Origin: Escherichia coli
Lineage (GTDB): Bacteria > Pseudomonadota > Gammaproteobacteria > Enterobacterales > Enterobacteriaceae
Length of the DNA stretch: 64,000 bases
Direction: 5' to 3' (one strand)
Assembly: GCF_011045215.1 (NCBI RefSeq)
Contig: NZ_CP049201.1
Below, in pieces: positions 21,598 to 35,531 of this stretch. Both the position numbers and the translations under genes were made by a program. How positions within the stretch are numbered: position 1 is the stretch's first letter; the number at the start of each line of letters is the position of its first letter. Below the pieces are notes generated by a model, which saw nothing but the letters and a program-made list of their open reading frames with translations, was not told the origin of the DNA and did no database searches.

Positions 21598-22956
21598 TTA
21601 TGTCAGTAGTTTTTGCAGATGGATGAGCAAACGGTCAATCGCACGATAGCTAACTGCCTCCTGCAAATGCTGACGTGTGATAATGTCAGACTGATCAATA
21701 TCAGCAATGGTTCGTGCAACTTTCAATAACCGCTGCCAGGCACGAATCGATAACCCCAGATGGATCAGCGTTTCTTCCAGCCACTGCGCATCTTCGCTCT
21801 CAAGCTTGCAGAATTTGCGTATTTCCGGACTATCCAGCCAGGCATTCAGTTTATTCTGCCGCTTAAATTGGCGCTCTCTGGCGGCCATTACGCGTTGTTT
21901 AACGGTGGCGCTGCTTTCTCCCGGCACTACCGTTTTACTCAAAATGCCGGGGGGTGGTAATGGGATCTCCAGTGAGAGATCGAAGCGGTCGAGAAAGGGC
22001 CCCGAGAGCCGGTTGAGATAACGTAATGTCTGTTCTGGCGTGCAGCGGTTATGGTTTCCCTGATAATGTCCGGTAGGGCTGGGATTCATCGCCGCAACAA
22101 GCTGGAAACGGGCTGGATAGGTTATTTTTGCTCGTGTGCGTGAAAGATGGATCTGCCCGGATTCAATCGGCTCTCGCAAAGCATCCAGTGTACGCCGTTC
22201 AAATTCAGGTAGCTCATCAAGAAAAAGCACGCCGTTATGCGCCAACGAAATTTCACCAGGCCCTGGAATTGCACCACCGCCCACCATCGCAGTTAACGAC
22301 GCACTGTGATGCGGTGAGCGGAACGGGCGCTGCCGCCATTGTTTTTGTACTGATTCAGCATTTACCAGACTTAATATCGCAGCGCTCTCCAGTGCCTCTT
22401 CATTGCTTAAATCTGGCAAAAGACCATTAATACGGCTGGCGAGCATTGTTTTACCTGTTCCCGGCGGTCCAATCAGTAAAAGGTTGTGCCCACCAGCGGC
22501 GGTAATTTCCAGTCCTCGCTTTCCTTGCTCCTGACCGACAACATCACTGAGATCATGTTGTAGCGCCCGGGATACTGCATCAGTTGGTTTCGGGCGTTCG
22601 AGAGTGTGCTTACCTTCCAGAAACGCACAGACAGCCTGCAGATGATCGGCTATCAAGCATCCTTCTCCGTTAATTAGCCCCACTTCATCTTCGTTATCTT
22701 TCGCGACGATAATTTTTCTGCCCGACTTAATAGCTTCAGTTGCACTGGAGATTGCGCCGGGAACGCCACGCAGAGCGCCTGTAAGCGCCAGTTCTCCGAC
22801 TAATTCATATTCATCTAACTTATTGGCTGTAAGCTGTTCTGAGGCCGCCAGCAACGCAATGGCGATAGGTAAATCATATCGTCCCCCTTCTTTTGGTAGA
22901 TCGGCTGGAGCAAGGTTAATGGTGATTTTTTTCGCCGGATATTCATATCCGCTATT
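21598..22956 (-). pseudogene. comM: comM C-terminal fragment (Mg-chelatase-like AAA+ competence protein), separated from its 5-prime end by the island
   Basis: ORF 21598..23001; ComM-like sequence from ...NSGYEYPAKKITINLAPADLPKEGGRYDLPIAIALL onward; the first codons (GTG at 23001, MIYQLDSISYANLV) are island-derived. Confidence 0.85.
22947..22956. repeat. left junction direct repeat (att core copy) ATCCGCTATT
   Basis: Identical 10-mer at 35360..35369; comM coding sequence is continuous across the two copies if the intervening DNA is removed. Confidence 0.8.
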
Positions 22957-23026
22957 TATAACTAAATTCGCATAACTTATTGAATCTAATTGATAAATCA
23001 CACTATAAATAACGTTAGAAATCGCA

Positions 23027-23084
23027 AATTAACTACACCATTAACTACACCGTTCGGTGCACTGTATGGAACAACTTGGAACAA
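23027..23084. repeat. left-arm repeat module: tandem ATTAACTACACC x2 plus GGAACAA x2 (putative integrase arm-type sites)
   Basis: 26-bp exact match AATTAACTACACCATTAACTACACCG with 35207..35232, then shared GGAACAAC(T/C)TGGAACAA. Confidence 0.6.
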
Positions 23085-23172
23085 ATAGACACAAGCGATA
23101 TACAGGAAGGGACAATTTTTCTATGCAGATTTGCATAGTTCCAAATGAAGCTGGTGGATGATCAGGGATAAC

Positions 23173-23196
23173 CCGATATGGGAATCCCCATATCGG
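23173..23196. repeat. 10-bp-stem inverted repeat CCGATATGGG-AATC-CCCATATCGG
   Basis: Perfect 10-bp inverted repeat with 4-nt spacer; no T-run, so more likely a binding site than a terminator. Confidence 0.5.
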
Positions 23197-23201
23197 CATC
23201 G

Positions 23202-23241
23202 CGTAGTTAATCGTAGTGGCTACCGTAGTAGCCTCCGTAGT
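23202..23241. repeat. phased CGTAGT x4 array
   Basis: CGTAGT at 23202, 23212, 23224 and 23236, spacing about 10 to 12 bp. Confidence 0.55.
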
Positions 23242-23282
23242 TGAGTCGCAGGGATGTAACAACCTGCCAGGAAGGAAATGAT

Positions 23283-23318
23283 CGTGACTCGCCGTGACAT
23301 GACGTGATTAATCGTGAC
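23283..23318. repeat. phased CGTGAC x4 array, exact 10-bp register
   Basis: ATCGTGACTC GCCGTGACAT GACGTGATTA ATCGTGACAC: core at 23283, 23293, 23303, 23313. Confidence 0.6.
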
Positions 23319-23386
23319 ACCAAACAAAAAGCCTTACCCGTAGGCTTAATGCTTGGCTTGACTGTAGGCTTACCGTAACGCGCCGC

Positions 23387-33351: not shown

Positions 33352-33403
33352 GGTTAAATCTCTGTATTAGTGGATGAGTGGCGGTTGTGTGCCGCCAGTC
33401 TGA

Positions 33404-33592
33404 TTAGTGAACTGCCTCGCGGCTGTCCTTCCATGCCAGAACTTCGGATAAAGACCAGCCAACGGAACGACCACCGAGTTTACGCCGTGATGGGAATTGT
33501 CCGGCTTTTTCCAGGCGGTAGCGGCATGAACGGCTCAGGCCTGTAAGTTGCTGACATTCTTTTTCACGTATAAAGCGATCTGTGCTTAACAC
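33404..33592 (-). CDS. alpA: AlpA-family phage transcriptional regulator / excisionase-like
   Basis: 62-aa ORF MLSTDRFIREKECQQLTGLSRSCRYRLEKAGQFPSRRKLGGRSVGWSLSEVLAWKD; next to integrase. Confidence 0.6.
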   Translation of the reverse strand: MLSTDRFIREKECQQLTGLSRSCRYRLEKAGQFPSRRKLGGRSVGWSLSEVLAWKDSREAVH

Positions 33593-33871
33593 AATTCCCC
33601 CTTTGTTGTTTCTTAAAGAGTCATTGGGTGGATTATTGGGTTGGGTTAAGTCGGATTGTGTCAGGGTGTTTATGGAATGGCAAACACTGGTGGCGGTCGT
33701 TTTACAGAAGTGGGGTAATGAGAATAAAAAGTCTTTTAATTCATTGTGATGCAGTAGCGTAAAATTCTGTTTTTACGCCTTTTTTGCATGTTTTTAAGAG
33801 TGATCCGTCAATGTATAAAAGAACAGTAATATTATTAAAATCAAATAGTTATCAATTGTGTGTTTTTTAGT

Positions 33872-33931
33872 CCGTTATTCCTTGTTGTAGCTTATTGTTC
33901 CTTGTTGTAGCTTATTGTTTCACGTTGTGTA
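33872..33931. repeat. about three tandem copies of a 20-bp unit CTTATTGTTCCTTGTTGTAG between integrase and alpA
   Basis: Two exact copies at 33872..33911 plus a degenerate third; lies in the alpA upstream region. Confidence 0.6.
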
Positions 33932-33955
33932 CGCCCTGAAAAACCACGAAAAAAA

Positions 33956-35206
33956 TTATATTTCTCTGGCTATTGGCAGTGTGGTTACGTTTTCGTGAGC
34001 ACCTGCCAATATCTCTAATCGCTCTGTCCACATATCCAGCGCATTACGTTTTGCGTCGAGATAACGGGAATGATTATAGACTCGTTGCATCCCTGGCATC
34101 TGGTGAGCGGTGAGTTGTTCGACAATATGCGGATCCACGCCTAAATCGTTCAGCATCGTTGTAAACGTGCGCCGTATATCATGTAGTGACCAGTGCGGAT
34201 GGTTTAATTTTTTGTGTATGAATCTGCCGTATTGCGACACGCTGGCTTCCTGTTTCAGTTCTCCAAGTAATAGCCCTGTGTGCCTGTGCTGCTCCACCAG
34301 CTGCGTGACGAACGGTAAAATGCTTTCCGGTATTGGCCTGAATATGGCGACCTTCGTTTTGCTGTGTTCCTTCGGTACAGTCCAGAGCATTTCCTTAAAA
34401 TCCCACTCCCTGATCTCCGACAGCCTCAGTTCTCCGGTTCGGCAGCCAAACACAATCAGGAGGCGGATTAGTGCGCTGTAGTAGGGCGGGAATATTTTTT
34501 TATCCAGCGCCTGTAATAACTCGCCCAGCTCTTTGTTACTCAGCACACGTTCGCTTATACCCGGCTTTTTACCAACGTCCACCACGTTGAGATCATCCAG
34601 AACGTTACTGACAGCGTAGCGACGTTTACGGCAGAACTTAAGCGCCTGTTTACACGCCTGCATCATGTGACCAGACGTTACGGGGGATTTTTTGCGTATC
34701 TGGTCAAAACAGGCGAGCCAGTGACGTAACTCGCATTTATCCAGTGGCATATTGCCGATGTGCTGTATGATGTGATTATTAAGGCGACTTTTTAGCGATT
34801 CGTAATCAACACGGTTTTCCCTTACGTGCATTTCTAACCAGTAGCTGATCGCATCGCCCACCGTTACCGGCTTTAGTGCTTCCTGTATTGAGTAATTAAG
34901 CTCATGGCGTGGATTTTTTCCCTCAGCCAGCCATGCACGACACTGTGCCGCCTTTCCCCTGGCTGCTTTCAGACTCAGATCCGGATAATTTCCCAGCTTC
35001 AGGCGTTCCGGTGATACCTGGCGTCCAGTTCCTGCCCTGTAGGTGAAATACCAGGTTAACAAGCCGCTGGTGGAGTGCCTGATACTCAGGTTTCCACCGT
35101 CATTAAGAAAGGTTGTTTTTGGGGCTGGTGTGTCGTTGATTTTTCTTAGCTGTGTATCGCTCAGTTTGTTAAGTACCCTGCTCATAATTTTGAATCCGGT
35201 CATCAC
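33956..35206 (-). CDS. int: tyrosine integrase (P4-type site-specific recombinase)
   Basis: 416-aa ORF; C-terminal catalytic region HDIRRTFTTMLNDLGVDPHIVEQLTAHQMPGMQRVYNHSRY; adjacent to right att core; true start may be an internal Met. Confidence 0.85.
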   Translation of the reverse strand: MMTGFKIMSRVLNKLSDTQLRKINDTPAPKTTFLNDGGNLSIRHSTSGLLTWYFTYRAGTGRQVSPERLKLGNYPDLSLKAARGKAAQCRAWLAEGKNPRHELNYSIQEALKPVTVGDAISYWLEMHVRENRVDYESLKSRLNNHIIQHIGNMPLDKCELRHWLACFDQIRKKSPVTSGHMMQACKQALKFCRKRRYAVSNVLDDLNVVDVGKKPGISERVLSNKELGELLQALDKKIFPPYYSALIRLLIVFGCRTGELRLSEIREWDFKEMLWTVPKEHSKTKVAIFRPIPESILPFVTQLVEQHRHTGLLLGELKQEASVSQYGRFIHKKLNHPHWSLHDIRRTFTTMLNDLGVDPHIVEQLTAHQMPGMQRVYNHSRYLDAKRNALDMWTERLEILAGAHENVTTLPIAREI

Positions 35207-35274
35207 AATTAACTACACCATTAACTACACCGATCATTGCACAAGGGGGTACAGCGTGGAACAACCTGGAACAA
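35207..35274. repeat. right-arm repeat module: tandem ATTAACTACACC x2 plus GGAACAA x2 (putative integrase arm-type sites)
   Basis: Direct-orientation copy of 23027..23084, immediately 5-prime of the integrase start. Confidence 0.6.
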
Positions 35275-35351
35275 GGAAAATTGAAATATACTTAAAAATC
35301 AAAATGATAATGAACAACGTGGCACATTATGAAGCAGTAAAAAACGCTAAG

Positions 35352-35531
35352 TTATAAAAATCCGCTATTGATAATGGCGCTGCGCACGCGATCGCGAGCT
35401 TCTTTTACCGTTGTTTCTGGTAAGCCCACCATCGTTAAGCCGGGTAGACCTTTACTGATATGTACCTCAACAGTGATTGGGGGCGCATTTACTCCCAGGG
35501 CTGCGCGGGTATGAACAATTGACAGTGACAT
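35352..35531 (-). pseudogene. comM: comM N-terminal fragment (about 59 codons), truncated by island insertion
   Basis: MSLSIVHTRAALGVNAPPITVEVHISKGLPGLTMVGLPETTVKEARDRVRSAIINSG then island-derived FL-stop. Confidence 0.85.
35360..35369. repeat. right junction direct repeat (att core copy) ATCCGCTATT
   Basis: Identical to 22947..22956; sequence beyond it resumes native comM. Confidence 0.8.

Follow-up and report, generated by a model that had tools for sequence, protein, structure and literature searches.

A 12.4-kb island in comM of Escherichia coli as a probable phage-inducible chromosomal island with a predicted Rac-SA53-type helper

What kind of element interrupts comM (yifB) in the Escherichia coli contig NZ_CP049201.1, and which phage could move it? 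The stretch analysed here (64,000 nucleotides, hereafter the window) is the rrnC-hdfR-maoP-comM-ilv region of E. coli and carries a 12,413-bp insert within comM. An earlier note on this DNA had described the insert as a phage-inducible chromosomal island (PICI) rather than a complete prophage, and its zones, its replicase with iterons, its size and the lack of structural genes support that description. The insert is very probably a Gram-negative PICI, that is, a phage satellite, with a helper of Rac-SA53 type and a putative module for hijacking the helper's heads. Its mobility and its roles in capsid redirection and packaging are inferred from the genes.

Insertion site and zones of the island

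The insert lies between two parts of comM and two copies of a 10-bp direct repeat:

21598..22956, minus strand: 3' part of comM (yifB), annotated in relatives as a partial YifB-family ATPase
22947..22956: left copy of the direct repeat ATCCGCTATT (attL core)
35360..35369: right copy of ATCCGCTATT (attR core)
35360..35531, minus strand: 5' part of comM, about 57 codons from MSLSIV, annotated in relatives as a fragment of a 'magnesium chelatase domain-containing protein'

The repeat occurs exactly twice in the window (chance expectation 0.09), and two copies were found in none of 100 shuffles. When 22957..35369 (12,413 bp) is removed in silico, an unbroken minus-strand open reading frame (ORF) of 516 codons is restored, which is complete YifB/ComM (MSLSIVHTRA... 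to ...LQKLLT). The comM flanks were matched in 5,425 of 5,426 complete E. coli genomes, and a typical genome has both 500-bp flanks joined by a single repeat copy, exactly 1,010 bp in all, under an intact yifB annotation. The comM site is empty in essentially all of the 5,426 genomes. The earlier note had claimed that comM reads through once the insert is taken out and that the insertion is clean and site-specific, and had proposed alignment to E. coli genomes with a whole comM; both claims hold, and the alignment gave the empty site.

The junction of the comM 5' fragment with the right end of the island (attR) was detected in 26 genomes, in which the exact comM position is occupied. Two of these 26 sites were inspected, those of A36 (14,075 bp) and ETEC1748 (11,848 bp), and both contain PICI-like islands at the same comM codon, bounded by the same repeat. 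The sequence indicates that a P4-type tyrosine integrase put the 12,413-bp element into comM at about codon 64, recombining across the 10-bp overlap. The attB region (22936-23001) contains a palindrome, CGGATAT-TC-ATATCCG, which overlaps the crossover repeat.

The insertion inactivates comM. The product of this gene is a helicase serving natural transformation, and carriage of the island may, given the inactivation, affect host pathways of DNA uptake. An N-terminally truncated ComM might still be produced, because an in-frame GTG start at 23001, supplied by the island sequence adjoining attL, opens a 467-aa (amino acid) ORF that runs into the 3' part of comM.

PHROG and NCBIfam profile scans took in all 19 island ORFs, and Pfam was used too. 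All island genes are on the minus strand except a YlcI/YnfO-family gene and one 59-aa ORF. Coming from the right end, the integration and Bro/immunity zones contain the following features, together with the repeats at both ends:

35209..35266, plus strand: right-end copy of the TTAACTACACC/TGGAACAA repeats, adjoining int; candidate arm-type sites
33956..35206, minus strand: tyrosine integrase (int), P4-type with arm-binding domain (phrog_1, 6.8e-72; Pfam Arm-DNA-bind_3, Phage_int_M and Phage_integrase)
33404..33592, minus strand: AlpA-family regulator/excisionase (alpA), adjoining int and co-oriented inward (phrog_2790, 6.6e-18)
32551..33351, minus strand: AntA/AntB (Bro-network) antirepressor-like protein, Ant (phrog_5817, 3.9e-39)
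31879..32550: gene-free gap of about 670 bp
31699..31878, plus strand: 59-aa ORF after the YlcI/YnfO-family gene
31330..31629, plus strand: divergent YlcI/YnfO-family gene (phrog_6522, 3.1e-39; annotated in the related island of cq9)
23029..23086, plus strand: left-end repeats, two copies of TTAACTACACC then two of TGGAACAA; candidate integrase arm-type sites

All four window copies of TTAACTACACC are at the two island ends, and the doubled TTAACTACACC/TGGAACAA repeats are plausible arm-type sites that the integrase would bind. The divergent YlcI/YnfO-family gene and the 59-aa ORF after it are a candidate regulator. A 597-aa ORF at 30765-32558 (minus strand) was rejected as a gene: it is of low complexity and overlaps real genes on both strands that are annotated in relatives.

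The replication zone follows:

29893..31136, minus strand: overlapping upstream operon (profile matches and annotation of relatives)
30765..31136, minus strand: tandem Icd-like genes
30548..30772, minus strand: 74-aa ORF
30190..30573, minus strand: 127-aa ORF
29893..30183, minus strand: DUF4222 gene
28148..29896, minus strand: 582-aa primase/replicase (pri) of the D5/P4 family, superfamily 3 (SF3) helicase type (phrog_864, 6.7e-143; Pfam D5_N, DUF5906 and Pox_D5)
27842..28122: replication origin directly 3' of pri, an AT-rich centre with nine GGTAGAYA iterons around it, in both orientations
27424..27771, minus strand: 115-aa C-terminal remnant of a RepA-family helicase (phrog_2850, positions 347-465 of 465)
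27106..27423: AT-rich tract with six AAAGTGGGK iterons directly after the RepA remnant, read as a relic RepA-type origin

Nine of the 11 window copies of GGTAGAYA are found within 281 bp after the primase stop (chance expectation 1.8). Six of the eight window copies of AAAGTGGGK fall in 27106-27423, the most AT-rich tract (GC content 0.346). The 115-aa remnant is annotated by RefSeq in cq9 as a truncated RepA-family helicase pseudogene, and the ETEC1748 island has an intact 470-aa RepA where the window island has the primase. Positions 1-135 of phrog_2850 match the first 143 residues of the primase. The zone is therefore read as a replicon-swap scar, since the RepA remnant and the AAAGTGGGK iterons persist here and ETEC1748 keeps an intact RepA: recombination within the N-terminal domain common to both proteins would have exchanged a RepA replicon for a primase replicon, and the old origin would have stayed in place.

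No match to a capsid, portal, large terminase (TerL), tail or lysis protein was obtained in the PHROG, Pfam and NCBIfam scans of the island proteins, and no gap left in the island is large enough for such a gene. Four zones (integration, Bro/immunity, replication, late) are present, as in the four-zone plan of Gram-negative PICIs, in which late genes are captured from helpers (PMC10111431), and the island fits the five PICI components of SatelliteFinder (PMC10085698). It has an integrase at one end and direct repeats, AlpA beside the integrase, a replicase with iterons 3' of it, a length of 12,413 bp, and late genes related to a helper, namely paralogues of the protease half and the C-terminal half of a Rac-SA53 head protein. 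This agrees with how Gram-negative PICIs have been defined (PMC6092414). Islands of the same architecture, with modules exchanged, were found in cq9, A36, ETEC1748, 55989, Klebsiella, Pantoea, Enterobacter and Serratia. The gene order stated in the earlier note (int, alpA, antirepressor-like gene, divergent regulator, replication operon, SF3 initiator, iterons, cargo) is recovered, as is its statement that capsid, portal, large terminase and tail genes are missing. Its remark that intergenic GC content is far below that of the flanks also agrees with the values: the flanks have about 0.49-0.55, positions 27000-27499 have 0.346 and positions 33500-33999 have 0.384.

Some of these genes would also suit a P4-like satellite that relies on a P2-type helper. 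The primase matches the P4-family primase C-terminal domain (NCBIfam TIGR01613, 109.3 bits against a cut-off of 108.7), Icd-like genes and AlpA are present, the integrase is P4-type with an arm-binding domain, and the size of about 12 kb is suitable. However, no homologue of Sid, Psu, Delta or epsilon was found in PHROG and NCBIfam scans of all island proteins, and no C4 or IsrK (CI/seqA-type) immunity RNA in the Rfam scan of the island. The 582-aa primase is without the Toprim and zinc-ribbon primase domains (Pfam), and the morphogenesis genes come from a Rac-SA53-type rather than a P2-type head module. A P4-like identity is accordingly the least probable of the explanations considered here, and the Gram-negative PICI reading is preferred.

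Several further observations concern regulation. The sole Rfam match in the island is a SymR-like RNA below threshold at 31125-31197 (plus strand; 37 bits, with a gathering score of 61), opposite where the Icd-like operon starts. A promoter scan gave no excess over the shuffled background. On the plus strand of the gene-free gap there is a promoter-like site at 32427-32455 (10/12 matches) and then a strong terminator-like hairpin at 32501-32528. Together with a ProQ/FinO-family gene in the late zone, these hint at RNA-based regulation or immunity.

Head-gene paralogues and the predicted helper phage

The late zone contains a conserved module of three genes:

25756..25953, minus strand: first gene of the module, a small ORF (57 aa when read from 25929; annotated in cq9 and ETEC1748)
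25132..25725, minus strand: 197-aa protein, candidate competing scaffold (phrog_6216, positions 402-544)
24396..25067, minus strand: 223-aa DUF2213 protein, prohead (capsid maturation) protease paralogue with a C-terminal long helix

The second and third genes both trace to one Rac-SA53 head protein: its N-terminal half shares 54% identity with the 223-aa protein, and residues ~280-422 of its C-terminal half share 59% with the 197-aa protein. In phages the homologue of the 223-aa protein forms the N-terminal half of a 430-553-aa protein, whose gene lies between the portal/head-morphogenesis genes and the major capsid gene. This is a protease/scaffold position, and the C-terminal half is presumably the capsid-binding part of the scaffold. 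The 223-aa protein has a fold of the T4 gp21/herpesvirus protease (assemblin) type. Across 29 phage and satellite sequences of its family H73, S125 and S127 are invariant and H161 nearly so. From the fold and these conserved residues it is predicted to be an assemblin-fold prohead serine protease.

In the satellite the C-half gene (197 aa) comes first and the protease half (223 aa) second, an order permuted relative to the phage gene; the pair is therefore not a simple frameshift split. Satellites of Klebsiella aerogenes and Pantoea agglomerans have the trio (57 aa, 190-199 aa, 221-224 aa) in unchanged order, with 50-71% identity, which argues that the short stand-alone forms are functional. 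The 57-aa gene is 71% identical to a 57-aa counterpart at the same place in K. aerogenes (L006). Public names for the 197- and 223-aa proteins include 'NUDIX hydrolase', 'TolA' and 'cell envelope biogenesis protein TolA'. A fused NUDIX domain (PF00293) is present in some phage homologues but in neither satellite protein, and the names have therefore probably spread as mis-annotations. A literature search for DUF2213 or Rac-SA53 in the context of satellites found nothing.

Could the two genes instead be what is left of a deleted head operon in a decayed, immobile prophage? Homologues of head-morphogenesis genes are indeed present. The RepA pseudogene fragment is a sign of past rearrangement, which counts against the PICI reading in that the element could be partly decayed, and at least 80% of the exact island is found in only one complete E. 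coli genome. On the other hand, both head genes are full-length and in reversed order compared with the phage, and the 190-199-aa and 221-224-aa forms are kept at 50-62% identity in Klebsiella and Pantoea. Nothing of a tail, lysis, portal, capsid or TerL gene came up in the profile scans. The direct repeats are perfect copies, and the origin is intact, as are int, alpA and pri. An inward int beside alpA is also the layout of PICIs and not of prophages (PMC10111431). A prophage remnant is thus very unlikely. The earlier note had named capsid or terminase homologues as the sign of a degraded prophage. No capsid or TerL homologue was found; paralogues of head-morphogenesis genes (protease and scaffold half) were, and these are not taken as such a sign because they are conserved stand-alone genes in permuted order at the late-gene position of PICIs.

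Taking the island as a PICI, its helper is inferred to be a temperate phage with a Rac-SA53-type head module. A related satellite in P. agglomerans GCA_014839175.1 (L009:6302-9769 and L007:9350-17628) is located inside terL of a Rac-SA53-like prophage. Its late module, the same as that of the window, consists of a 199-aa protein, a 221-aa DUF2213 protein and then an Sf6-type small terminase (TerS). The prophage TerL is split, with residues 4-343 upstream of the satellite int and residues 332-442 downstream, directly before the portal gene, and the prophage proteins from portal to capsid are 68-84% identical to those of Rac-SA53. The Pantoea case is a helper-embedded PICI in a non-lambda head module.

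About 1.6% of the complete E. coli genomes carry Rac-SA53-like prophages; strain W and LT-II toxin phages are among the cases. The Rac-SA53 head module was detected in 87 complete genomes. The satellite module, counted from 75% coverage upwards, was detected in 33, of which no fewer than 12 belong to the 60 listed genomes with a Rac-SA53 head, against 0.36 expected (hypergeometric p ~3e-16), although this co-occurrence is inflated by clonal enterotoxigenic (ETEC) and Shiga toxin-producing (STEC) genomes. In STEC005, STEC719, ETEC1732 and ETEC1734 the satellite late module and a Rac-SA53-type head module are 38-41 kb apart. The closest relative of the window island, in cq9, is integrated between smrA and abgR, a site which, going by K-12 gene order, is a few kb from ttcA, where Rac attaches. 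Given the 38-41 kb spacing in the four genomes and the closeness of smrA/abgR to ttcA, the satellite and its presumed helper may be neighbours on the chromosome.

The life cycle proposed here is modelled on that of E. coli PICIs already characterised. A helper phage would switch on alpA-dependent transcription, after which the island would excise, replicate from its own origin and be packaged in particles made by the helper. The helper would make one 430-aa protein with a prohead-protease fold in its N-terminal half and a scaffold in its C-terminal half, and the satellite would make the two halves from separate, reordered genes. Inside procapsids the free C-half protein could act as a competitor of the helper scaffold, much as CpmB of the Staphylococcus aureus pathogenicity islands (SaPIs) does, and such competition would bias assembly towards capsids that fit 12 kb. 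CpmB is a competing internal scaffold that redirects capsid size in the S. aureus 80alpha/SaPI1 system. Maturation of the small capsids would fall to the detached protease. Finally, a winged-helix protein encoded next to the protease may bind a downstream AAGTGTCAA array and mark satellite DNA for the helper terminase, as an analogue of TerS or Rpp.

The winged-helix protein and its repeat array

Three features lie between the protease gene and the left end of the island:

23862..24389, minus strand: 175-aa satellite-specific protein in the TerS slot, with an N-terminal winged helix-turn-helix and an alpha/beta C-domain
23599..23854: array of six exact AAGTGTCAA repeats at ~55-bp spacing, interleaved with YTAAGGT motifs, immediately downstream of the 175-aa gene
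23387..23566, minus strand: 59-aa ORF, the gene nearest attL (annotated in cq9 and ETEC1748; weak PHROG matches to families of unknown function)

The 175-aa protein has about 115 homologues in Enterobacterales, all unannotated, in which residues 1-41 are almost invariant and the remainder is variable. In the structural model (pLDDT 89) the N-terminal winged helix resembles Xis, Cox, the lambda TerS N-domain and RppC, and the C-domain gave no informative structural match. The gene directly follows the protease gene, in the slot that holds an Sf6-type TerS in the Klebsiella and Pantoea relatives. All six exact window copies of AAGTGTCAA are in the array. A repeat array follows the gene of a homologue of the 175-aa protein in seven loci of four genera, E. 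coli 55989 included, and 34 of the 37 copies of AAGTGTMAA in these loci are no more than 1 kb downstream of that gene. The 55989 island that carries the array has a different integrase, att site, replicase and late genes from those of the window island. In relatives with a canonical small terminase in the slot the array is absent. The array is thus a candidate binding site for the 175-aa protein and a candidate packaging site, and by analogy with TerS/cosB or Rpp a packaging-specificity cassette is the preferred reading of the pair.

A serious, if less probable, alternative is that the island is a PICI in which this pair is instead a Cox/Xis-like cassette for regulation or recombination directionality. 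Families of Cox-like excisionases and of AlpA type are among the weak PHROG matches of the 175-aa protein, nothing TerS-like matched it over its full length, and in Klebsiella (L011) a homologue coexists with a DUF5681 protein. Yet the element is already equipped with AlpA beside int, the 175-aa gene fills the TerS slot right after the protease gene, and relatives with a canonical TerS have no array. Arm sites of the integrase or Xis were tried as an explanation of the array and rejected: it is 640-900 bp from the att core, and it is not an attP arm because in 55989 two genes (about 2 kb) part it from the island end.

Packaging remains the preferred role of the cassette, with several findings weighing against it and against the proposed head hijack, besides the clonal inflation described above. 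Xis and P2 Cox score equal to TerS in the fold match of the 175-aa model, so a regulatory role is equally compatible with the fold. A PDB sequence search (E<=1) gave no similarity between the 175-aa protein and RppC (6hn7) or lambda TerS, and searches of the PDB with the 223-, 175- and 197-aa sequences gave nothing meaningful. In a BFVD fold search the 175-aa model matched helix-turn-helix fragments only, all with E >= 0.075, and no viral protein over its full length. The DNA of the island tail (22957-23870) is not similar to any of 50,697 phage records. A lambda-type cosN (GGGCGGCGACCT, up to two mismatches) was sought and rejected, as the late zone has none, nor does the island, and the window count is at chance level. 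The scaffold role of the 197-aa protein is drawn from gene position and analogy, and the protein has no match in Pfam or the PDB.

It is suggested, tentatively, that the late zone may be an uncharacterised hijack system for Rac-SA53-type heads, made of a split scaffold mimic and a detached protease, plus a winged-helix/AAGTGTMAA packaging cassette distinct from TerS and Rpp, and common to several PICI lineages of Enterobacterales. Any new mechanism might be confined to the split protease/scaffold pair and the winged-helix/array cassette; the island as a whole is one more Gram-negative PICI, of which thousands are already catalogued. It is a clean, testable example with a defined att site, predicted helper type and hijack module, in which the parts derived from the head paralogues map one-to-one onto one helper protein. 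Should the split pair prove to redirect capsid size, the CpmB mechanism of SaPIs would have a Gram-negative equivalent; should the 175-aa protein and the array direct packaging, they would be a third solution beside TerS and Rpp.

In the PICI of E. coli 55989 at tRNA-Thr (L010:10429-13528) the 175-aa gene and the array are followed by an AAA ATPase and DUF4435 pair, which resembles the PARIS defence system. The position after the array looks like a variable cargo hotspot. It is nearly empty in the window island, since only the 59-aa ORF is found there.

At the other end of the late zone two genes precede the head-gene module and would act as accessory regulators:

26415..26957, minus strand: ProQ/FinO-family protein, overlapping the perC start (NCBIfam FinO/ProQ matches below cut-off; annotation of relatives)
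26131..26418, minus strand: PerC-family regulator (phrog_994, 2.8e-35; RefSeq annotation of relatives)

The pair is followed by a strong terminator-like hairpin at 26061-26091. Carriage of PerC- and ProQ/FinO-family genes would be expected if the element were an integrative island serving mainly host regulation or defence, with the phage-like genes incidental and moved without helper packaging. The C-terminal third of Ant (residues 171-255) matches the PADLOC candidate defence family PDC-S22 (E 2.8e-10), and the related 55989 island ends in the AAA ATPase and DUF4435 pair. However, apart from this weak Ant match, PADLOC found no defence system among the late-zone proteins, the primase and Ant, including the genes of the tail. 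No relaxase, oriT or conjugation gene turned up in general profile scans of the island proteins, and the conserved late module is derived from a phage head and co-occurs with one phage type. This explanation is highly improbable beside a helper-dependent PICI. The earlier remark that cargo positions in such elements tend to house anti-phage or helper-manipulation functions is thus upheld in part: helper-derived head-gene paralogues suggest manipulation of the helper, and the defence part is not borne out, the PADLOC search having been empty.

Relatives and known systems

The closest relative, the cq9 island (L001:2501-14847), shares 94% DNA identity with window positions 22947-35369, and the integrases are 96.6% identical. 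Its site is between smrA and abgR instead of comM, and its flanking repeat is TCACGATATT instead of ATCCGCTATT. The attB flanks of the two sites are alike (ATTCAT-N10-RATAATG). Since the two islands differ in site and repeat, integrases of this type have at least two chromosomal targets, whose overlaps differ. A more distant satellite in Klebsiella pneumoniae CP052167 (L011:5501-18516) encodes a 171-aa winged-helix homologue and, in its late zone, Dit-like and Pam3_gp18-like baseplate genes. It is directly followed by E217-type tail genes, including a second Dit-like/Pam3_gp18 pair, and may be another helper-embedded satellite with captured tail genes.

Compared with SaPIs, the island likewise encodes a homologue of the capsid-binding end of the helper scaffold, which could compete in procapsids as CpmB does. 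Its proteins have no sequence relation to CpmA or CpmB, and the small-capsid role is a prediction from the genes. In addition, the helper protein here is a protease-scaffold fusion, and the satellite also keeps the detached protease.

The E. coli PICIs EcCICFT073, EcCIO42 and EcCIMP1 (PMC6092414; PMC11773190; PMC10111431) share much of the organization of the window island. Both have an inward int-alpA end, a Bro/antirepressor zone with Icd-like genes, a PerC-family gene, and DUF4222 with a primase-type replicase followed by an iteron origin. Helper-derived late genes, a size of 10-20 kb, a short direct repeat and the lack of tail and lysis genes are also common to them. The window island differs in its site, comM (yifB) as opposed to tRNA-Thr, fis or the other sites described for E. 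coli PICIs, and in having neither an Rpp homologue nor a lambda-type cos. Its late zone contains a split and reordered Rac-SA53-type protease/scaffold pair and the 175-aa protein with its array, and its predicted helper is of Rac-SA53 type, whereas those of the E. coli PICIs are lambda/80 or Kapi1. The 175-aa gene sits in the late zone like that of Rpp of EcCICFT073, which acts by Rpp-TerS redirection (PMC6739421). Unlike Rpp, to which no sequence similarity was detected, the 175-aa protein has an alpha/beta C-domain and not the coiled coil of RppC, and its cognate DNA would be the downstream six-copy array, not cosB beside lambda cosN.

The island differs from P4-like satellites in that the scans gave no psu-delta-sid operon, epsilon or C4/IsrK RNA. 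Capsid-forming PICIs (cf-PICIs) resemble it in their left-hand modules of int, alpA and primase and in a prohead protease gene. In contrast to them, it has no genes for major capsid, portal, TerL, HNH or head-tail connector proteins and cannot build a capsid of its own. In the helper-embedded PICIs (PMC10111431) the closest parallel is with the Pantoea relative, which is likewise co-oriented within a late gene (terL) of its presumed helper prophage. The window island, by contrast, is chromosomal in comM and would act in trans, on a helper whose head is of Rac-SA53 type and not lambda-like.

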